From: a bacterium
Lineage (GTDB): Bacteria; SAR324; NAC60-12
Assembly: GCA_965233585.1 (NCBI GenBank)
Contig: CBDDTI010000746.1
Coordinates: forward strand, 672,001 to 736,000
DNA: 64,000 nucleotides
Direction: 5' to 3'
The translations under genes were made by a program, and so were the position numbers. The notes under the pieces were generated by a model. It made no database searches. It had not been told where the DNA came from and saw nothing but the letters and a program-made list of their open reading frames with translations. Shown piece by piece: positions 48,435-58,666 of the stretch. Every line of letters starts with the position of its first letter. The stretch's first letter is position 1.

Positions 48435-49304
48435 ATGATTGTTCAATCGTATTCCAAAAGAATGATGAGAGTGGTCTTGGCATGGTTTGTTGTGCTGATT
48501 TCTGCATTTCCAATTTTTTATTGGGTTTCAGTCGCTTTTAAACATGCCAAAGATATTTTTCACATTCCTCCCAAATTGCTAGATTTTGATCCAACTTTGA
48601 AAAACTTTTATGAAGTCTTCGGTTTTTCATTTGGAGGGCAGGTAGATTTTGGAGGGGGTGCAGATTGGTTCATGCTGCCAAGATTGTGGGACTCAATTAT
48701 CATTGCACTAGGTTCTACTGCGTTGGCAGTGGTGGTGTCTGTTCTGGCAGCTTATGCTTTGAGCCGTATGAACTTTACAGGACGTCATCATTTTGTCAAC
48801 TGGGTGCTTTCAACTCGTATGCTTCCACCTGTTGCTGTGGCATTGCCAATGTTTTTGATGTTTCGTGATTTTGGTTTGATGGACACACACATTGGCATCA
48901 TTTTAATTCATGCCTTGATGAATCTGCCGCTTGGTGTGCTGTTGCTGAAAAGTTTTTTTGATGACATTCCCCAAGAAATTGACGAAAGCGCTCTCATAGA
49001 TGGGGCGTCACGGTGGGTAATTTTTCGCCGCGTTGTCTTCCCAATGGCAAAAGGAGGTGTTGCCGCAACTGCTGTGCTGTGCTTCATTTTTTCTTGGACA
49101 GAATTTTTATTTGTTCTCACACTCACCCAGACAGGATTAAAAACTGTTCCTGTTGTCTCTTCTACCTTTGTCACTTCCACAGGCACGGCATGGGGGAATA
49201 TGGCAGCACTTGGAGCAGCCGCCATCATTCCTGCTTTTCTATTCATTTTGATTGTTCAAAAACAGCTAGTCAGAGGTTTAACGTTAGGTTCACTGAAACA
49301 ATAG
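48435..49304 (+). CDS. Carbohydrate ABC transporter permease
   Basis: AAYALSR, ESALIDGA, FIFSWTEF, LVRGLT.GS.K. Confidence 0.9.
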   Translation: MIVQSYSKRMMRVVLAWFVVLISAFPIFYWVSVAFKHAKDIFHIPPKLLDFDPTLKNFYEVFGFSFGGQVDFGGGADWFMLPRLWDSIIIALGSTALAVVVSVLAAYALSRMNFTGRHHFVNWVLSTRMLPPVAVALPMFLMFRDFGLMDTHIGIILIHALMNLPLGVLLLKSFFDDIPQEIDESALIDGASRWVIFRRVVFPMAKGGVAATAVLCFIFSWTEFLFVLTLTQTGLKTVPVVSSTFVTSTGTAWGNMAALGAAAIIPAFLFILIVQKQLVRGLTLGSLKQ

Positions 49305-49537
49305 TCATTTTTTTAAAAAAATGACGTTTCTCATTTCACTAAGTCCGTAAAACTCATGTCATTGAAAAAAGTGACAAATGATGGTAATGTGAAGAAACTG
49401 ACAATAGGTCTAAAAAATTTGATACAAAAAGGCAGTCAAAGCAAATAGACTATCAAAATTGACTAAATCAACAGTTTTCAGAAAGTTGAATTTTTGAAAA
49501 CTATGAGCTTGTCAAACGTTTTGAAACCACCTCAGGC

Positions 49538-51397
49538 ATGCCCCTTTCTTTTAAAGCACTTCAAGCGATTCTTTCCACGAATCCTGATTATCTCAATCAA
49601 GATGGCAGCTTAGACAGCAGTAAACTACACAAGTTGGTTCAAAGCAGTGATGCCTCATTGATTGCTTTGTTATTAAGTCATCAAGAAACCAAAGCTACGT
49701 TCTTCATTCAACAAGGCAATCATAGTGTCTTCCTAAGGGACAAGCTGATTGATTACATATCGCACAAGGATTTTTTAGCCAATTCTTATACGCGTTATAA
49801 AAATAAAATCGGCTTGCATGATGGAACAAACTATCTGAAAAAAACCAATGATGTTGTTCTAAACTTTCCTTTTAAAGATTGCATCTTAGAAGGTGGACAA
49901 ATCAAAGATGATGACAAACAAGGAGAAGTTTATTTGAATGAAGTGTTAGCTTACATAGAAATAGACAGGCTATTTGATAAAAAAGTCTTCACTTCTGCCA
50001 AAAAATACACTTCAAAAGGACAACAAAGCATCGCAACGTTCAACAGAGATGAAAACGGAGTTATCAAAGATAATCTTATCATCAAAGGGAACAATTTAAT
50101 CGCTTTACATAGCATCAAACATCAGTTTAGAGGCAAAGTTAAACTGATTTACATTGACCCACCTTACAACACAGGCAATGACAGCTTTAACTATAATGAC
50201 CATTTTAACCATTCTACTTGGTTAGTTTTTATGAAAAATCGTTTGGAAGTTGCCAAAGAATTGCTAAGAGATGATGGCGTCATTTTTGTCAGCTGTGACC
50301 ACCATGAACAAGCCTATTTAAAAGTTTTGATGGACGAAGTTTTTGGAAGGGAGAATTTTATTGTCAATTTTGTTTGGGAGACTAAAAAGGGAGCGCAAGG
50401 GATTGTGACTAAAAATATGGTTGTTAACAACCATGAAAATTTAATTGTCTTTTCAAAAACAGAAAATGCTTTTTCTTTTAGGGGATTAGAAAGAGAGGAG
50501 GCTGATTTTGCAAATCCTGACCATGACCCAAGGGGAAAATGGAAAAGGCAATACCTTCAAAGGTTTGGACAAAACTTTAGTCAAAAAACTATTGTCAATC
50601 CCCAAAATAAAATGACCTTTACTTTTGAAACACCCTATTCACAAGAAAAATTAGACCAATGGATCACAGAAGGTTACATCATCTTTCCTGACTCACCAGA
50701 CCAATACCCTGCAAGAAAAGAGTTTTTGAAAGATTATAAAAATAAAAAGCAATGTGTGTCTTCATTAGGTTTGTATTCTACAAAAGCAGGTACTGAAGAA
50801 TTGTATAAACTTTTTGACAATCAAAAAGTTTTTAAGAATCCAAAGCCAGAAAAACTTATTTCTTTTATTATTGAGCAATCTACTCTACCCAATGACATTG
50901 TTTTGGATTTTCATTTAGGAAGTGGTACAACTGCTGCTGTGGCTCATAAGATGGGGAGGCAATACATTGGAATTGAGCAGATGGATTACATAGAACAAGT
51001 TGCAGTGGAGCGACTTAGAAAAGTGATTGATGGTGAACAAGGAGCAGTTTCTAAAAGTGTAGAATGGCAAGGAGGAGGTGAGTTTATTTATTTAGAGTTA
51101 AAAAAATACAATCAACATTTTGTAGAGCAAATTCAACAGGCACAAACGACAAAAGAATTGTTAGAGATTAGAAAAGTTCTTTTAGAAAAAGGTTTTATAG
51201 ACTATCGTTTGAATGTTGAGGCAATCAAAGCAAATGACCAAGAATTTAAAAAGATCACATTAGAACAACAAAAACAAATCTTATTTGAGTTTTTAGATAA
51301 AAATCAGTTGTATGTCAATTATTCTGAAAGAAAAGATGAAACGCACAGTTGCACTGACGAAGAAAAAGAACTTTCAAAAAAATTTTATGAGGAGTAA
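49538..51397 (+). CDS. mod: Type III R-M modification methylase, copy 1
   Basis: NLIIKGNNL, VKLIYIDPPYN (motif IV), PKPE, VLDFHLGSGTT (motif I), WQGGGEF. Confidence 0.92.
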   Translation: MPLSFKALQAILSTNPDYLNQDGSLDSSKLHKLVQSSDASLIALLLSHQETKATFFIQQGNHSVFLRDKLIDYISHKDFLANSYTRYKNKIGLHDGTNYLKKTNDVVLNFPFKDCILEGGQIKDDDKQGEVYLNEVLAYIEIDRLFDKKVFTSAKKYTSKGQQSIATFNRDENGVIKDNLIIKGNNLIALHSIKHQFRGKVKLIYIDPPYNTGNDSFNYNDHFNHSTWLVFMKNRLEVAKELLRDDGVIFVSCDHHEQAYLKVLMDEVFGRENFIVNFVWETKKGAQGIVTKNMVVNNHENLIVFSKTENAFSFRGLEREEADFANPDHDPRGKWKRQYLQRFGQNFSQKTIVNPQNKMTFTFETPYSQEKLDQWITEGYIIFPDSPDQYPARKEFLKDYKNKKQCVSSLGLYSTKAGTEELYKLFDNQKVFKNPKPEKLISFIIEQSTLPNDIVLDFHLGSGTTAAVAHKMGRQYIGIEQMDYIEQVAVERLRKVIDGEQGAVSKSVEWQGGGEFIYLELKKYNQHFVEQIQQAQTTKELLEIRKVLLEKGFIDYRLNVEAIKANDQEFKKITLEQQKQILFEFLDKNQLYVNYSERKDETHSCTDEEKELSKKFYEE

Positions 51398-51400
51398 AAA

Positions 51401-51817
51401 ATGATTATTTATCTTGATAATTGTTGTTTTAACAGACCTTTTGATGATCAAAGGTATTTATCTATTAAAATAGAAACTGAATGTAAATTGTTTATACAAC
51501 AAGCCATTAAAGAAGGAAAATTGATTTTATGTTGGTCATACATTCTTGATTTTGAAAATCATCAAAACCCTTTTTTAGAAAGAAAAATACAAATCCAAGA
51601 ATGGAAAAATATAGCTCTTAAAGACACTGAAGAAACAACAGAAATTTTAAAAATAGTGAAGACTTTCACTGCACTTGGATTCAAACCTTTAGATGCTTTA
51701 CATTTAGCTTGTGCCGTAGAAATGAAATCAGATTATTTTATCACGGTTGATAAAGGTATTTTAAAAGTATCTGAAAAATATTATCTCTTAAAATTATATC
51801 TCCTGTTGATTTTGTAA
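51401..51817 (+). CDS. PIN-domain (VapC-like) toxin; C-terminus apparently frameshifted
   Basis: IYLDNCCFNRPFDD, DALHLACA, FITVD. The alternative frame after the A5 tract at 51774 gives KIISPVDF. Confidence 0.8.
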   Translation: MIIYLDNCCFNRPFDDQRYLSIKIETECKLFIQQAIKEGKLILCWSYILDFENHQNPFLERKIQIQEWKNIALKDTEETTEILKIVKTFTALGFKPLDALHLACAVEMKSDYFITVDKGILKVSEKYYLLKLYLLLIL

Positions 51818-51833
51818 AATTATTAGAAAAAAC

Positions 51834-52046
51834 ATGATGACTGATACCGAATTGAAAATCCATGCTTTTGAAGTGTTGAATCAACATCTTGGTCTTGTAG
51901 AAATGGAAAGGTTTATTGCTTTGATTCAGCAAGAACAGTTTGATTATACGCATTGGAGAACAACTTTATTCCAAGGGCTTGATGGTCAAACAATTAGCCA
52001 ATTAGCAATGGATTATAAGAAAAATCAAAATACACAAATTGAATAA
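51834..52046 (+). CDS. Small partner protein of the PIN toxin (putative antitoxin)
   Basis: 70 aa with a LG.VE.ERFI......FDYT.WR motif, a family I recall as commonly adjacent to this PIN type. Confidence 0.7.
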   Translation: MMTDTELKIHAFEVLNQHLGLVEMERFIALIQQEQFDYTHWRTTLFQGLDGQTISQLAMDYKKNQNTQIE

Positions 52047-52108
52047 TTTTTTATTCCTATTTAGCTCTATCCGTATTTTCAACAAACAAGTTTTAAAACT
52101 ATTGCAAC

Positions 52109-54016
52109 ATGTCTCTTTCTTTTAAAGAATTAAAAACTATTCTTTCTCAAAATTCGGAATATCTCAATCAAGATGGCAGTTTGAACATTATCAAACTGCA
52201 CAAACTGGCTCAACAATGCGATACCAATTTGATCGCTTTATTGGTGAAGCATCAAAACACTAGATCCAGCTTTTTCATGCAACATGAAGGTTATCATGTT
52301 TTTATGAGAGATAAATTTATAGATTATATTTCACATAAAGAGTTTTTAGCCAATTCTTACACCAGATATAAGAATAAAATCGGCTTGCATGATGGAACAA
52401 ACTATCTGAAAAAAACCAATGATGTTGTTCTAAACTTTCCGTTTAAAGATTGCATCTTAGAAGGTGGACAAACCAAAGATGATGACAAACGGGGAGAAGT
52501 TTACTTGAATGAAGTACTGGCAGGGTTTGAAATAGACAGGCTTCTTGATAAAAAAGTTTTAACTAATTTCAAACGCTTTGGAAGCAATCCCCCTTTATCT
52601 CCCTTTGAAAAGGGGGAAGCAATGGAATTGCAGGGGGATTTCCAACGAGATGAAAACGGAGTTATCAAAGATAATCTCATCATCAAAGGGAACAATCTAA
52701 TCGCTTTACATAGCATCAAACATCAGTTTAGAGGCAAAGTTAAACTGATTTACATTGACCCGCCTTACAACACAGGCAATGACAGCTTTAACTATAATGA
52801 CCACTTTAACCATTCTACTTGGTTAGTTTTTATGAAAAATCGTTTGGAAGTTGCCAAAGAATTGCTAAGAGATGATGGCGTCATTTTTGTACAATGTGAT
52901 GATAACGAACAAGCCTATTTAAAAGTTTTAATGGATGAAGTTTTTGGAAGAGAGAATTTTGTTGCCAATTTTATATGGAATCATAGAAAATCTAGCCAGA
53001 ATGACATTGATGTTTCTCTTTCACATAACTATACATTTACATTTTCTAAAAATAGAGATTTTTTTAAATTAAACTCTTTAAAAATTGATCATAGTAAATT
53101 TTCTAACATAGACAATGATCCTAGAGGAGATTGGATAGCTGACCCTTTTGATGCACCAAACATTCGTCCTAATTTGACATATAAAATAGTCAACCCGAAT
53201 ACAGGTCAAGAGTTTCTACCTCCACAGGGAAGATGCTGGAGAATGACAGAAGAAAAATTTGAAGAAGCTCTAAAAGATAATCGTATTGTTTTTGGTAAGG
53301 CTGGAAAATCCAAACCGCAATTAAAAAGATTGAAATTTGAGGCAGAATTAAAAGGGACAAATCCCTTTACAATATGGGATGGAAATGAAGTAGGGACTTC
53401 CACTGAAGGAACAAAAGAGATTATAAAACTCATGGGAAGGAAAGGAGTCTTTGCCACTCCAAAGCCAGAAAGACTTTTGGAAAGAATTATAAAACTAGCA
53501 ACTCAACCAAATGACATTGTTTTAGATTTTCATTTAGGAAGTGGAACGACGGCAGCCGTTGCTCATAAGATGGGGAGGCAATACATTGGAATTGAGCAAA
53601 TGGATTACATAGAACAAATTGCAGTAGAACGCTTAAAAAAAGTGATTGATGGTGAACAAGGAGGAGTTTCTGAAAGTGTAGAATGGCGAGGAGGAGGTGA
53701 GTTTATTTATTTAGAGTTAAAGAAATACAATCAACATTTTGTAGAACAAATTCAACAGGCACAAACGACAAAAGAATTGTTAGAGATTAGAAAAGTTCTT
53801 TTAGAAAAAGGTTTTATAGATTATCGTTTGAATGTTGAGGCAATCAAAGCAAATGACCAAGAATTTAAAAAGCTAACATTAGAACAACAAAAACAAATCT
53901 TATTTGAGTTTTTAGATAAAAATCAGTTGTATGTCAATTATTCTGAAAGAAAAGATGAAACGCACAGTTGTACTGACGAAGAAAAAGAACTTTCAAAAAA
54001 ATTTTATGAGGAGTAA
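52109..54016 (+). CDS. mod: Type III R-M modification methylase, copy 2 (different target-recognition domain)
   Basis: Same DPPY and FHLGSGTT motifs as copy 1. The region between ENF and PKPE differs. Confidence 0.92.
   Translation: MSLSFKELKTILSQNSEYLNQDGSLNIIKLHKLAQQCDTNLIALLVKHQNTRSSFFMQHEGYHVFMRDKFIDYISHKEFLANSYTRYKNKIGLHDGTNYLKKTNDVVLNFPFKDCILEGGQTKDDDKRGEVYLNEVLAGFEIDRLLDKKVLTNFKRFGSNPPLSPFEKGEAMELQGDFQRDENGVIKDNLIIKGNNLIALHSIKHQFRGKVKLIYIDPPYNTGNDSFNYNDHFNHSTWLVFMKNRLEVAKELLRDDGVIFVQCDDNEQAYLKVLMDEVFGRENFVANFIWNHRKSSQNDIDVSLSHNYTFTFSKNRDFFKLNSLKIDHSKFSNIDNDPRGDWIADPFDAPNIRPNLTYKIVNPNTGQEFLPPQGRCWRMTEEKFEEALKDNRIVFGKAGKSKPQLKRLKFEAELKGTNPFTIWDGNEVGTSTEGTKEIIKLMGRKGVFATPKPERLLERIIKLATQPNDIVLDFHLGSGTTAAVAHKMGRQYIGIEQMDYIEQIAVERLKKVIDGEQGGVSESVEWRGGGEFIYLELKKYNQHFVEQIQQAQTTKELLEIRKVLLEKGFIDYRLNVEAIKANDQEFKKLTLEQQKQILFEFLDKNQLYVNYSERKDETHSCTDEEKELSKKFYEE
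52586..52640. repeat. Palindromic element inserted in frame in mod2
   Basis: AATCCCCCT...AGGGGGATT outer inverted repeat enclosing two hairpins; absent from mod1. Confidence 0.75.
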
Positions 54017-54019
54017 AAA

Positions 54020-54241
54020 ATGAGACAAATTGTAATTTACCCAGACATTTGTAATGGTAAGCCTGTTATTGAAGGAACACGAATCACCGTCCAAACGATT
54101 TTAGAATTTTTAGGAGCAGGAGATTCAGTAGAAGAAGTATTAGAGGCTTATCCTAGTTTAACTAGGGAAGACATCTATGTTTGTATTCAATATGCTTCAA
54201 AAATCATGGCAAATTGTTATCAAAATAAAATAACGATATGA
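54020..54241 (+). CDS. DUF433 family antitoxin
   Basis: PDICNGKPVIEGTRITV..IL...G.S.EE.LE.YP.L..EDI..C..YA. Confidence 0.9.
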   Translation: MRQIVIYPDICNGKPVIEGTRITVQTILEFLGAGDSVEEVLEAYPSLTREDIYVCIQYASKIMANCYQNKITI

Positions 54242-54579
54242 AAGGCTTTCTTTTTGATGAAAACCTTCCTATCAATTTAGATTTAGAATCACCTTTTTCC
54301 ATCATTCATGCTTCTCATTTAGGAGAAAGCCTATCAGATACTCAAATATGGGAATATGCAAAACAAAATGATTTAGTGATTGTTACAAAAGATACAGATT
54401 TTTCATATAGAATTTTGGAAATTTCACCACCACCAAGAGTCATTCATTTACGTATTGGAAATTTAAAAAGAAAAGAGTTTAATACTTTGCTTTGTCAAAT
54501 TTGGAGACAATTAGAAAATTTATGCTCTTGTCATAAATTAATCAATGTCTATATTAACCAAATTGACACCCTTGCCTAA
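54238..54579 (+). CDS. DUF5615 PIN-like toxin (VapC45-type)
   Basis: FLFDENLP, SD..IWEYA....VIVTKDTDF, PPRVIHLRIGN; ATGA overlap with DUF433. Confidence 0.88.
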   Translation: MKGFLFDENLPINLDLESPFSIIHASHLGESLSDTQIWEYAKQNDLVIVTKDTDFSYRILEISPPPRVIHLRIGNLKRKEFNTLLCQIWRQLENLCSCHKLINVYINQIDTLA

Positions 54580-54648
54580 TCAAAAAATTTAAAATAACTC
54601 TCTCTTTTGAAAAATTGATGATTCTTTTATTTATAATGAAATTCCTCA

Positions 54649-54703
54649 TTGCACTGATGAAGAAAAAGAACTTTCAGAAAACTTTTATGAGGAATAAAAA
54701 ATG
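54649..54703 (+). repeat. Third, stand-alone copy of the mod 3' end plus RBS (55 bp)
   Basis: 4 mismatches over 55 nt versus 51349-51403; also matches 53968-54022. Confidence 0.9.
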
Positions 54704-55123
54704 ATAGAAACAACTTATTTAAAGCATTGTCTTTTGGTTTTGGAAGCGGCATACATCAAGCTAAAAAATTGTAACCCTCAAGAAATAGAATATGACATCT
54801 ATCGTTTAGCAGTAGTCAAAGAGTTTGAAATTGTTTTAGAGCAAGCAGGGAAGTTATTAAAAAAATGTATGAAACCATACTTTCACAGTCCTAAAGCAGT
54901 CAATCAACTGACTTTCAAAGATATTTTTAGAGAAGCAGGAAAGTTTGGCATACTAGAAATTGACGAACTACAACGTTGGCTAGATTACAGAGATAGTCGC
55001 AATGAAACTTCGCATGAATACGGAGAAAGTTTAGCCAATCAAACATTAGAATTAATAGAACAATTTCTTATAGATTCAAAAAATTTGGTGGATAAACTAG
55101 AACGGTTTAACAAACATCATTGA
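54701..55123 (+). CDS. HEPN-like nucleotidyltransferase substrate-binding protein (HI0074 family; HepT-like toxin)
   Basis: VKEFE..LEQ.GKLLK, KDIFREA...G, and RNETSHEY (Rx4H plus xY). Confidence 0.85.
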   Translation: MIETTYLKHCLLVLEAAYIKLKNCNPQEIEYDIYRLAVVKEFEIVLEQAGKLLKKCMKPYFHSPKAVNQLTFKDIFREAGKFGILEIDELQRWLDYRDSRNETSHEYGESLANQTLELIEQFLIDSKNLVDKLERFNKHH

Positions 55124-55434
55124 ACATGCTTATCATTAGAGAACAAGACAAACAGGCAATCGTTCAAATTGCAAAAAAAGTCTTACAAACAAAGCTAGAG
55201 ATTTGGGCTTTTGGTAGTCGTGTCAATGGAAATTGTCATAGCACAAGTGATTTGGATTTAGTCTTAAAAACAACAGATCAAACACCATTGCCAATGAACG
55301 AACTTAATCAATTTAAAGAAGCATTAAGGGATTCTAACATTCCAATTATTGTACAAGTGTTAGATTGGAATAGAATCCCAAAATCTTTTTGCCAAAATAT
55401 TATGAAAAAATATGAAGTATTGACCCAAATTTAA
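55120..55434 (+). CDS. Minimal nucleotidyltransferase (MNT; MntA/HI0073-like antitoxin)
   Basis: FGSRVNGNCHSTSDLDL fits GSx10DxD; overlaps the HEPN stop codon. Confidence 0.88.
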   Translation: MNMLIIREQDKQAIVQIAKKVLQTKLEIWAFGSRVNGNCHSTSDLDLVLKTTDQTPLPMNELNQFKEALRDSNIPIIVQVLDWNRIPKSFCQNIMKKYEVLTQI

Positions 55435-55451
55435 CAAAAGACCAAGCACCA

Positions 55452-58004
55452 ATGAACAAACAATTTTTATTTGAGAAGTATCAAGCATTAGAAGACATGG
55501 GTTGTTTGCAAACAGAAGTACCTGACTTAATCACTAAAAATCTTAAACATACGTTAAGACCTTATCAAGAAAAAGCAATCAAACGTTTTGTACATTATCA
55601 CGAAAATTATCCCAATAAAAATGGTAATCAACATTTGCTTTTTGAGATGGCAACAGGTACAGGCAAGACTTTAATGATGGCGGCTTTGATGCTCTATTTA
55701 TACTCAAAGAATCACCGAAATTTTATCTTCTTTGTCAATTCTACAAACGTTTTAGAAAAGACCAAACAGAACTTTATTGCACAAGGAACAAGCAAATATC
55801 TTTTTACAGATTCTATTGAAATCACAGGAGACAAAGTAGAAATTAAAGCCATTGATTCAATAGAAGACTCTAATCCTCATTGCATTAATATTTTATTTAC
55901 CACCATACAAGGCTTACATTCACAACTCAATACACCCAAAGAAAATGGTTTAACTTTGTCAGATTTTACAGAATACCAAGTCGTTTTGCTCGCAGATGAA
56001 GCACATCACAACAACACACAAACTAAAGTACAAAAAGAGTTATTTGATTCTTGGGAAAACAGTGTTTTAGCAATTTTTCAACAACATTCAGATAATCATT
56101 TATTAGAATTTACAGCCACTGCAGAATTAGACAAGCCTGCATTAAAAGATAAATACTTAGAGAAAGCAATCATTCAATATGGTCTAAGAGAGTTTAGAAG
56201 TGATGGATATTCTAAAAATATTTTCTTAGCACAAACTCAAACAGATGAGATAAAAAATCGCTTTTTGTTAGCATTGATAGTGAGTCAATACCGTATGGAA
56301 GTTGCCGCAAAATATAAAATCCCTTTAAAACCTGTCATTCTCTTTAAATCTAAAACAATTAAAGAAAGCAGAGACAATCAAAAATCTTTTGAAGAGATGA
56401 TAGAACATTTGACAAAAGAAGAAATCCATGAACTTTTTGATTTAATAGGCAGATATAGAAATCAAACCCCAATCTATCACAAAATTTATTATTTTTTTAG
56501 AGAAGATGAGTTTTTTGCTCAACATCTTGTAGAACGACTAAAAATTGAATTTTTACCAGAAAAAATCATCAATGCCAATGATGACCAAGACGTCAAAACG
56601 ATGCAAATTAAACTCAATACACTGGAGGACGTCAACAACCGATATAGAGTGATTTTTGCAGTGGATAAGCTCAATGAAGGTTGGGACGTCTTGAATTTGT
56701 ATGACATTGTCAAATTGTATGAAACACCTAGCACTAAATATCACCCACCAACTACCAAAGAAATCCAGTTGATTGGCAGAGGAGCAAGGCTTTATCCCTA
56801 CAAAAGAGATGACAACCAAGATTTATACAAACGAAAATGTGATGACGATTTAGACCATGAATCTATCGTTTTGGAACAACTTCATTTCCATACTTCTGAT
56901 GGCTCAAAATTCATTGAACAATTAGATAAAGATTTAGCAGAAATAGGCTTAAAAGATTCTGACTTAACTGAGGTAGAAATCAAATTGAAAGATGATTTTA
57001 CAAAATCAAACATTTATAAATATGGTGTCATTTACCTCAACCAAAGAAAGCTCAGAGAATCTAGTCATATGACTTTAAACAAAAACTTATTTGGCAATTA
57101 TGTTTTAGATGATGTTTTTAAAAAAGAATTTGAATCCGTAACAGGACACTATCAAATCAAAGTGGATCTTGATGAGTATGAATTAGGAGAAGAACAACAT
57201 TCAAAAAATCATTTATATACCCAAAAAAAGACTTTGAAAATTCAAGATATTCCTAAACAGATTTTCTTAAAAGCATGTTCCAGAAATAAATATTTTTTCT
57301 TTGATAACCTAGAATATAAACTTGGCTTAAATTGTATCACTGATTTACAAAAAATCTTTCAAGACAATCTTCTCACCATTGAACACCCAAAAACACACTC
57401 CGAAGCAGAAGTACAAAAACCTGAACACTTACTTAAAGTCTGTGATAGTTTTTTAGCAAATCTGTCTCATCAAATGACTAAAATCTGCACAAACTATGAG
57501 GGAACAAAAGAGCTTATTCCCAAGCCGATTCAAGATGTTTTTAGGAATAAAAGAATTATTTTAACTAAAGAACAAGAAAGAAATTTGTTAGACGGCTTTC
57601 AATTTCAATATCTTGCACAAGAAAAGTTAAAAATTAATTCTTATGAACAGCAGTTAATTGCTGACATTTGTGATTTTTTTCAAGGGAAGGGGTTAGAACC
57701 TGTTTGGTTGATGAGGAATGAACGTTTTTTTCAGATTTATAATTTTTCTAATGGAGAAGGCTTTGAACCCGATTTTTTATTGATGCTTCATCAAAAAGAT
57801 GAAAATGAAAATCATCTTTGTTACCAAATTTTTGTTGAACCCAAAGGGGAACATTTACAACAATTTGACCAGTGGAAAGAAGATTTAATGCACAATTTTG
57901 AGAAAATTGAACTCAAGGACACTCAACAAAAAATCATTGCTTTGCCTTTCTATACTCCAGACTCACAGCAATCTTTTTTGAGTGACTTAAACAAAAAATT
58001 GTGA
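55452..58004 (+). CDS. res: Type III restriction endonuclease subunit (SF2 helicase plus PD-(D/E)xK nuclease)
   Basis: LRPYQ, MATGTGKT, LADEAHH, EFTAT, EGWDV, QLIGRGAR, EPDF...FVEPKG. Confidence 0.92.
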   Translation: MNKQFLFEKYQALEDMGCLQTEVPDLITKNLKHTLRPYQEKAIKRFVHYHENYPNKNGNQHLLFEMATGTGKTLMMAALMLYLYSKNHRNFIFFVNSTNVLEKTKQNFIAQGTSKYLFTDSIEITGDKVEIKAIDSIEDSNPHCINILFTTIQGLHSQLNTPKENGLTLSDFTEYQVVLLADEAHHNNTQTKVQKELFDSWENSVLAIFQQHSDNHLLEFTATAELDKPALKDKYLEKAIIQYGLREFRSDGYSKNIFLAQTQTDEIKNRFLLALIVSQYRMEVAAKYKIPLKPVILFKSKTIKESRDNQKSFEEMIEHLTKEEIHELFDLIGRYRNQTPIYHKIYYFFREDEFFAQHLVERLKIEFLPEKIINANDDQDVKTMQIKLNTLEDVNNRYRVIFAVDKLNEGWDVLNLYDIVKLYETPSTKYHPPTTKEIQLIGRGARLYPYKRDDNQDLYKRKCDDDLDHESIVLEQLHFHTSDGSKFIEQLDKDLAEIGLKDSDLTEVEIKLKDDFTKSNIYKYGVIYLNQRKLRESSHMTLNKNLFGNYVLDDVFKKEFESVTGHYQIKVDLDEYELGEEQHSKNHLYTQKKTLKIQDIPKQIFLKACSRNKYFFFDNLEYKLGLNCITDLQKIFQDNLLTIEHPKTHSEAEVQKPEHLLKVCDSFLANLSHQMTKICTNYEGTKELIPKPIQDVFRNKRIILTKEQERNLLDGFQFQYLAQEKLKINSYEQQLIADICDFFQGKGLEPVWLMRNERFFQIYNFSNGEGFEPDFLLMLHQKDENENHLCYQIFVEPKGEHLQQFDQWKEDLMHNFEKIELKDTQQKIIALPFYTPDSQQSFLSDLNKKL

Positions 58005-58666
58005 GACGATTGCGTTGTCTTAAACTGATGAAAAGGATACCTATGCCAACATCTACCGCACCAGAACATTCTTTTTTGCATGATGTGTATGCCTTGTTGA
58101 TTGGTAGCAGCTTGATTGCAGTTGGGTTGGCTATGTTCAAATCTGCTGGGATTGTGACATCAGGTTTGAGCGGCTGGGCATTTTTGTTGTCTGAAGTCAC
58201 AGGATATTCGTTTGGCGTCTTGTTGTTTATTATCAGTTTACCATTTTATATTTTCGCTTATCGTTTGTTGGGTTTTTGGTTTACATTACGGACAGTTGTT
58301 TTGGTGACGGTGGTTTCTGTTTCTGTGGACATGATAGGTGTGATGATGACAATCAACGTGCATCATTCCTTGATGGGCAGTCTCACTGGTGGTGTTCTTT
58401 GTGGCATGGGGTTACTGTCAATCATGCGTCATGGCATGAGTATGGGAGGATTTGGCGTGCTAGGCGCCTTTTTACAACATAAAAACATCATACGTGCAGG
58501 TATTGTGATGATGAGTGCTGATGGAATTTTGGTGGTGTTATCCGCATTTGTCTTTCCATGGGAAAGCATTTTGTTTTCTTTGGCATCTATGGTCAGCGTG
58601 AATCTCATACTTATCGTCAATCATAAATCTGAATGGTATGTCTCCACTAGCTACGGCATGGGATAA
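58001..58666 (+). CDS. YitT family membrane protein (start probably at ATG 58028 or 58043)
   Basis: HS...DVYAL..G, G..TSG.SG, SLPFY, RHG.S.GG, NHK..WY. Confidence 0.82.
   Translation: MRRLRCLKLMKRIPMPTSTAPEHSFLHDVYALLIGSSLIAVGLAMFKSAGIVTSGLSGWAFLLSEVTGYSFGVLLFIISLPFYIFAYRLLGFWFTLRTVVLVTVVSVSVDMIGVMMTINVHHSLMGSLTGGVLCGMGLLSIMRHGMSMGGFGVLGAFLQHKNIIRAGIVMMSADGILVVLSAFVFPWESILFSLASMVSVNLILIVNHKSEWYVSTSYGMG

Follow-up and report, generated by a model that had tools for sequence, protein, structure and literature searches.

A Type III restriction-modification operon from a SAR324 bacterium with stacked toxin-antitoxin-like pairs and a relic mod tail

A stacked Type III operon

The subject of this analysis is a restriction-modification (R-M) operon of Type III in a 64,000-nucleotide stretch of DNA, here termed the window, from a bacterium of the SAR324 lineage (NAC60-12; assembly GCA_965233585.1, contig CBDDTI010000746.1, positions 672,001 to 736,000). 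On the plus strand it comprises, in order, a methyltransferase gene (mod1), a PIN-domain gene with a small partner, a second methyltransferase gene (mod2), a DUF433/DUF5615 pair, a relic mod tail, a HEPN/MNT pair and the helicase-nuclease gene res; the three toxin-antitoxin (TA)-like pairs are termed TA1, TA2 and TA3 in this order (Table 1). The array probably arose when differently loaded mod-cargo-res alleles were fused and then trimmed by recombination, with each cargo inheriting the ribosome site of res. Judging from the sequences of related loci, the slot between mod and res is a general one for defence and accessory genes.

The gene order, strand and coordinates given in an earlier reading of the same DNA, made without database searches (the sequence-only reading), agree with the sequence, Pfam and PADLOC. 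Both mods combine amino-methyltransferase motifs with an internal variable recognition region, as is typical of Type III Mod proteins, and the co-oriented downstream res is an open frame with a superfamily 2 (SF2) helicase and a nuclease domain showing helicase and PD-(D/E)xK-type motifs. Extra co-oriented genes placed between the genes of one R-M system further give the locus the layout of an operon with embedded defence genes.

Each cargo pair begins at a copy of a 55-nucleotide (nt) stretch, the 34-nt core of which has three matches in the window but none in any of 100 shuffles. As had been proposed, every copy ends in the ATG of a different gene (51401, 54020 and 54701), with GAGGA 8-12 nt upstream. 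All three copies lie where they had been placed, but copies 1 and 2, taken then to be identical, differ by one mismatch at position 4, and the four mismatches ascribed to copy 3 hold against copy 1, there being five against copy 2. Since mod1 and mod2 share a 566-nt block of 92.8% identity whose final 55 nt are copies 1 and 2, copy 3 alone is an independent repeat; its likeness to the mod end begins at about 54636 and is broken by a 7-nt patch. No further copy of the tail was recovered in the 12-Mb genome beyond these three, and the 55-mer with three positions free had no exact match in a collection of genome contigs that may omit the genome itself.

The 55-mer comprises the coding sequence of a normal Mod C-terminus, the stop codon and the start signal that res normally uses. 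The built-in translational coupling postulated earlier is therefore present, but as the native mod-to-res arrangement and not as something special to TA cassettes: given that the 55-mer holds the native start signal of res, coupling would pass to whatever gene occupies the slot. The 55-mer appears to recur as the anchor of each unit, and not as the target of an enzyme.

The mod-res junction in related loci

The junction was compared in 79 genome and 80 metagenome loci with a Mod C-terminus (drawn from the best 80 of 301 and the best 80 of 468, many of the loci being short). In the 148 loci with a measurable gap, the second locus of the same genome included, res begins no more than 60 nt from the mod stop in 109, and the gap exceeds 150 nt in 36. 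When grouped at 95% into 128 clusters, 96 show mod followed directly by res, 29 an insert of more than 150 bp and 3 an intermediate state. Outside these counts stand one locus in reverse orientation (L190), with res directly after mod, and five loci on viral contigs, three with res directly after mod, one reaching only to the mod stop and one incomplete. An ATG lies within -25 to +15 of the mod stop in 93 of the 96 direct and 21 of the 29 insert clusters, preceded by a Shine-Dalgarno (SD)-like word in 48 of the 93 and 5 of the 21, respectively; cargo starts vary from -23 to +7 relative to the mod stop. On a 126-tip FastTree tree the insert state requires at least 22 changes (mean of shuffles 27.2, with 2 of 500 as low), indicating that it is weakly clustered but has been gained or lost many times.

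Cargo was typed with Pfam on 49 open reading frames (ORFs) from 32 loci. Counted by cluster, it includes RhuM (7), PDDEXK_3 (4), MNT-HEPN (2), Fic (2) and an AAA ATPase with a partner (2), along with Abi_2, Abi_C, Shedu, HTH-IrrE/DUF4411 and TIR-STAND in single clusters and several genes lacking a Pfam match; all 47 of the longest non-overlapping cargo ORFs chosen are co-oriented with mod. Tabulation of the genes at this junction, which the sequence-only reading had put forward as a check, thus yields many different families and not one fixed set. Its notion of the mod 3' end as a recurrent place of gene capture is upheld by the 29 loaded clusters of 128, the diversity of their cargo and the 21 of 29 that start where res would; the further notion of a dedicated docking site is not. 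Nor is the cargo specifically of the TA kind: MNT-HEPN pairs occur in only 2 of the 29 insert clusters, and a wider count that takes Fic, AAA-plus-partner and HTH-IrrE/DUF4411 as TA-like reaches about 7 of 29. No relative examined has two TA pairs, which makes three unusual in this sample. The simple explanation that the host is TA-rich was ruled out for two families, with one DUF433 match and three HI0074-type matches in 12 Mb.

The most frequent cargo is the RhuM family, present in 7 of 29 clusters (L038, L046, L053, L055, L130, L162 and L189). The cargo without a Pfam match at an E-value of 1e-4 (L065, L088, L100, L145, L164, L168, L173 and positions 5244-5981 of L135) supplies candidate defence genes. 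In the other Type III locus of the same genome (L191, 7473-10708) a TIR-STAND gene (851 amino acids, aa) and a Y1_Tnp gene lie between mod and res.

Relic tails and the formation of the array

An extra copy of a locus's own mod tail was found in at least 8 of 138 clusters, a lower bound because many loci are short. One of these loci (L107) displays the succession tail-gene-relic tail-gene, as in the window. A pair of others (L135/L136) reads mod-gene A-res head relic-mod tail relic-gene B-res, which would be the expected scar of two loaded alleles that were fused and trimmed. Tandem mods or mod ends occur in L076, L077, L150 and L169 and a relic tail before mod in L078, with a res-head relic at the seam before mod in L076, L077, L078 and L150. 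None of these five junctions (those of L077 and L150 perhaps representing one lineage) has a gene between the copies. Duplication of the res head inside inserts is clearly above shuffles only in L135/L136, and the relics vary from locus to locus in length and junctions. The PIN and HEPN pairs also have homologues with no mod or res match beside them (18 loci, flanks of about 1.5 kb), and the PIN pair sits elsewhere between hsdS and hsdR of Type I operons.

These observations can be brought together in the following history. A gene landing in the mod-res gap would keep the ribosome site at the mod end and be inherited together with the R-M genes. Recombination in conserved stretches of mod and res, homologous or by microhomology, would have strung three such loaded alleles (mod1-TA1, mod2-TA2 and mod3-TA3-res) together in tandem. 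The res copies lying inside the array would later have been deleted, and so would mod3 except for about 68 nt, which provide the translation start of TA3. The RNase-type pairs would be passengers, or a second, growth-arresting line of phage defence.

Several points weigh against this history. The data contain no empty or partly filled allele of the same locus and no genome of the same genus, so that the order of fusion and deletion events is a reconstruction. In seventeen comparisons the window yielded no clear relic of res: the best res-head match (14/15, p about 0.007 as one of the 17) lies in the TA1-mod2 spacer, in sequence that also resembles the region upstream of mod1. The spacer between TA2 and the relic tail had no significant match to mod or res that would indicate its origin. 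All three pairs here are TA-like, a richer content than in relatives (2 to 7 of 29), and this is left to chance or selection. The helix opposing the SD sequence at copy 3, described below, is not accounted for by simple decay. Finally, the loci compared are the best 80 per scan, many of them short.

In two of the relatives, further details bear on such arrays. L107 has at 762-1855 three short, apparently truncated cargo frames (KilA-N, HTH and Bro-N), with the relic tail between the first two. In L090 (6642-15160), mod-AAA ATPase-partner-res has a second copy of mod, a broken one, immediately after it.

The toxin-antitoxin-like pairs

In an alignment with six homologues the PIN protein of TA1 retains the conserved acidic residues D6, E27, D98 and D117. 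A frameshift near 51770, with the same letters in contigs of three runs, removes the C-terminal (N/D)PxxF stretch seen in the five full-length homologues aligned, and the alternative frame ends overlapping the ATG of the partner. The replacement tail is hydrophobic, so that loss of activity is not certain. The partner had no match in Pfam or NCBIfam and its nearest Atlas clusters are unnamed; it matches no known antitoxin family, and only the pairing is conserved, a similar gene of 68-77 aa following PIN in all seven plasmid homologues opened and in four of the five best full-length homologues from the phylum. TA1 is a conserved pair whose toxin gene comes first; in members of the same phylum it stands by itself, and on Planktothrix plasmids it lies within Type I operons. 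On two of these plasmids (L192 and L212) the PIN-plus-partner family lies between hsdS and hsdR; in L192 an MNT-HEPN pair is present just upstream of hsdS, and in L215 the PIN pair follows NurA and an ATPase gene.

In TA2 the DUF433 gene, the sole match to this family in the genome, overlaps the PIN-like gene, and both score above the Pfam cut-offs. The pair of a DUF433 (COG2442) gene and a PIN-like gene was shown to be a TA system in Synechocystis (vapBC10, PMC3834315), and TA2 has the same pairing, here recognized by its sequence. TA3 consists of adjacent genes with the motifs given for type VII HEPN-MNT systems, RX4HXY and GSX10DXD (PMC11586414), the former as R100-X4-H105-X-Y107 in HEPN. 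Unlike the type VII HepT and MntA families, it scores 15.3 and 35 bits where the respective NCBIfam cut-offs are 60, and passes the TIGR01987 cut-off for HI0074, the subfamily to which it belongs; its MNT protein gives a weak PADLOC match to PDC-S09 (4e-7).

Such pairs might be retained because they police the array, any recombination that deletes a pair killing the segregant. This idea concerns maintenance and is compatible with an origin by recombination. The geometry would allow addiction for TA1, given that any crossover between mod1 and mod2 removes it and that their exact tracts reach 95 nt, but hardly for TA2, which lies between tails 2 and 3 that share only 18 identical bases in a row. 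Short identical tracts recombine poorly. TA3 has no flanking repeats at all. All three cargo modules here being TA-like speaks for policing, as does the precedent of TA cassettes in Vibrio integrons, which kill cells upon excess cassette excision (bioRxiv 10.1101/2022.08.03.502626). On the other hand, the PIN gene of TA1, the one lodged between long identical mod tracts, is the frameshifted one, and at the five related tandem or relic mod junctions inspected no gene separates the copies. With the best-placed pair damaged and related tandems persisting unguarded, addiction is given low weight: TA-enforced stabilisation is weakly supported and not favoured, and we hold it to be unlikely.

The leader of the HEPN gene

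Owing to the 7-nt patch at copy 3, 54641-54649 is exactly complementary to 54687-54695, the stretch containing the HEPN ribosome site; this helix arm is absent from copies 1 and 2. The predicted accessibility of the ribosome site is 0.00 at copy 3, compared with 0.52 at copy 1 and 0.57 at copy 2, and none of 1,500 random patches hides it equally well, in a test that was chosen after the fold had been seen. The accessibility rises to 0.21 with a 57-nt leader, and shuffles fold only modestly worse than the leader as a whole (z -1.35). Among 53 related junctions none has a perfect arm against the SD sequence and five reach an accessibility below 0.05 through other pairings. A hidden ribosome site as a general trait of mod-res junctions was rejected, the mean accessibility being 0.43 both in the 53 junctions and in shuffles. 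The predicted helix may have been selected as a brake on the toxin-first HEPN gene, or it may be an incidental outcome of template switching at the seam of the deletion. Running through it is a 22-codon frame (54636-54704) that shares ATGA with the HEPN start; as copies 1 and 2 have this frame too, it may be incidental.

A bolder scheme would make the mod 3' end an integrase-free module of capture and expression, in which homologous recombination of tail-anchored cargo builds an ordered array, TA pairs are selected as punishers of collapse and as a backup to restriction, and the orphan tail has been retuned into a hairpin leader that keeps HEPN untranslated until a ribosome from the 22-codon frame opens it. 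Taken as a whole, this scheme seems decidedly doubtful to us.

The two methyltransferase genes

Mod2 is 71% identical to Mod1 (436 of 615 aligned residues), and the two form a mosaic of blocks of 98-100% and 44-74% identity, with exact common tracts of up to 95 nt. In mod1 the DPPY and FxGxG motifs are intact and, by block comparison with mod2, its own target-recognition region spans about codons 271-454. Among conserved codons synonymous differences affect 27 of 59 in the first 90 codons and 4 of 104 in the last 105; their scarcity at the 3' end points to recent exchange there, and the mosaic is consistent with recent recombination in the 3' block. A GC-rich hairpin (52589-52616; z -2.8 as DNA) lies in frame inside mod2 in a variable loop and has no counterpart in mod1; with one strict and three core matches in the genome it was rejected as a genome-wide repeat.

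The operon would most likely provide restriction at two target sequences through one Res. Heterodimeric Type III methylase systems do exist, and two mod genes beside a single res in one operon, with conserved C-termini that would permit mixed dimers, might suggest that Mod1 and Mod2 are two subunits of one methylase and not alternative specificities. Yet both carry the same complete motif set (DPPY and FxGxG) and are near-identical outside the N-terminus and the recognition region, and most relatives have one mod, with a second Mod C-terminus in 4 of 160 loci (tblastn). The heterodimer is accordingly quite improbable.

Site-specific recombination and assembly

The sequence-only reading saw in the 55-mer a cassette site, that is, a dedicated, integron-like docking site capturing TA cassettes by site-specific recombination. 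All three modules do begin at the same position of the repeat, and a lone tail of 55-68 nt before a different gene recurs in L107 and L078. Its remark that no integrase is visible at the locus is correct, the nearest tyrosine recombinase match lying about 484 kb away on the same contig (one of 11 PF00589 matches in the genome, any of which might act in trans), and this tells against the site itself. The copies form no stable or attC-like fold relative to shuffles (z 0.6, 0.6 and -1.5, with the bottom strand folded for copy 3 only), and the locus has neither of the hallmarks of integrons, an adjacent IntI tyrosine recombinase and a folded attC 3' of each cassette. The DNA of the 55-mer is not conserved outside its own genome, it codes for the normal Mod C-terminus, and both the relic junctions and the cargo starts vary among loci as noted above. 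Reading it as a cassette site is an over-interpretation of a coding tail and very improbable; the slot was most likely filled by ordinary recombination.

Contigs from four runs, representing at most two samples of one study and possibly the source data, bear on the assembly; no RNA data set is listed as containing the locus. The region 51827-58600, in which the TA1 partner, mod2, TA2, the relic tail, TA3 and res follow one another, is matched without a difference by a 7,033-nt contig of the second sample. In three runs of another sample contigs cover both recognition regions, TA1 and the part from tail 2 to res and break at the shared repeats; they also join the mod tail to TA1 and the mod2 start (51375-52402), and the mod1 start to its upstream flank (48800-49831). 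No single contig spans the whole locus, and the end of mod1 is not phased. Run X4 has zero cover upstream of 51827, flanking gene included, which marks a hole in cover and not a shorter allele. No joint skipping TA2 is listed in the four contig sets; a collapse between mod1 and mod2 makes no new word and would escape this check. The idea that the tandem structure is an artefact joining alleles of different strains, to which the 747 contigs of the genome assembly, the breaks of short-read contigs at the mod1/mod2 repeats and the want of a contig over the whole locus lend some colour, is most unlikely in view of the 7,033-nt contig and the links found in three runs.

Further features of the operon

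Table 1. Features of the Type III operon, in coordinates of the window
Feature	Position	Strand	Description	Basis
mod1	49538..51397	+	Type III methyltransferase, 619 aa	Pfam PF01555, PF12564; PADLOC MTase_III 1e-188
55-nt copy 1	51349..51403	+	last codons of mod1, GAGGAG ribosome site, stop, PIN ATG	
PIN-domain toxin candidate	51401..51817	+	138 aa	Pfam PIN 21.2 bits, under cut-off 23.6
TA1 partner, presumed antitoxin	51834..52046	+	70 aa, no family name	
mod2	52109..54016	+	Type III methyltransferase, 635 aa, recognition region unlike that of mod1	Pfam, PADLOC, mod1 alignment
55-nt copy 2	53968..54022	+	mod2 end, ribosome site, DUF433 ATG	
DUF433 (COG2442-type) antitoxin candidate	54020..54241	+	73 aa	PF04255 91.2 bits; PDB 2GA1
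DUF5615 PIN-like toxin candidate	54238..54579	+	113 aa	PF18480 77.8 bits
Relic mod tail, HEPN leader	54636..54703	+	copy 3 at 54649-54703; homology from about 54636	
Predicted 9-bp helix	54641..54695	+	54641-54649 pairs with 54687-54695, covers HEPN ribosome site	
HEPN (HI0074-type) toxin candidate	54701..55123	+	140 aa	PF08780 72.1 bits; TIGR01987 above cut-off; PDB 1JOG 4e-14
MNT nucleotidyltransferase antitoxin candidate	55120..55434	+	G32-S33-X10-D44-X-D46	PF18765 42.3 bits
res	55452..58004	+	Type III helicase-nuclease, 850 aa	PF04851; PADLOC REase_III 7e-119

The first gene of each cargo pair has an SD-like word, unlike res, mod1 and mod2, upstream of which none is seen (55435-55454, 49508-49540 and 52079-52111, respectively). 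A scan for promoters (26 sites, 34.1 in shuffles) and terminators (4 sites, 4.1 in shuffles) was uninformative; visual inspection shows a TATAAT at 54632, with TTGAAA 19 nt upstream, that the scan did not call. No repeats of the phase-variation type (a run of 8 or more, or a 2-5-mer repeated four times) occur in mod1, mod2 or res. The region 49500-58000 has a GC content of 29-36%, the flanking sugar-transport genes mostly 38-47%, and none of the 20 largest repeat families listed provides a direct repeat flanking the operon.

Comparison with known systems

Extra co-oriented genes inside defence operons have been published for Hma, BREX, DISARM and Type I R-M systems, with diverse cargo including PIN- and RelE-type genes, and a benefit from linkage, co-regulation and backup has been proposed (Payne et al., bioRxiv 10.1101/2024.01.29.577857). 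The present operon shares this layout. Unlike it, the passages of that work considered here do not treat Type III mod-res embedding, tandem mods or relic tails; they use "Type III" once, for DRT, and "recombination" nowhere. The classic RNase gene inside an R-M operon is PrrC within EcoprrI (PMC12707154), which is comparable in having an RNase-type gene in such a place. In contrast to PrrC, which is held inactive by the R-M complex, the RNase-type genes here have partners of their own and show no link to Mod or Res.

The mosaic mods are reminiscent of Helicobacter pylori, where Type III mod genes exchange recognition domains via conserved flanking sequence (PMC3467074). Recombination in conserved mod sequence is common to both, but in H. 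pylori the moving unit lies inside mod, whereas whole mod-plus-cargo units appear to be stacked here. Like sedentary chromosomal integrons (bioRxiv 10.1101/2022.08.03.502626), the operon carries TA modules that could punish deletion, arranged in an array with repeats between the units; unlike them it has no nearby integrase and no attC fold, and its repeats are coding relics 5' of the cargo.

The Type III mod-res gap may thus be a cheap place to mine for defence genes, with 29 of 128 clusters loaded and several cargo genes belonging to no Pfam family. Relic tails and res heads offer a handle, at the level of sequence, on how embedded arrays are built, and an operon that combines two specificities with three TA-like pairs and a leader that may have been retuned provides a compact test case for the question whether such arrays are stabilised by TA pairs. 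Literature searches, with supplements and most subscription papers outside their scope, recovered no publication describing relic tails or arrays of cargo at the mod-res junction of Type III systems. In conclusion, embedding within defence operons is known, and what appears to be new here is stacked cargo in a Type III operon together with relic tails.

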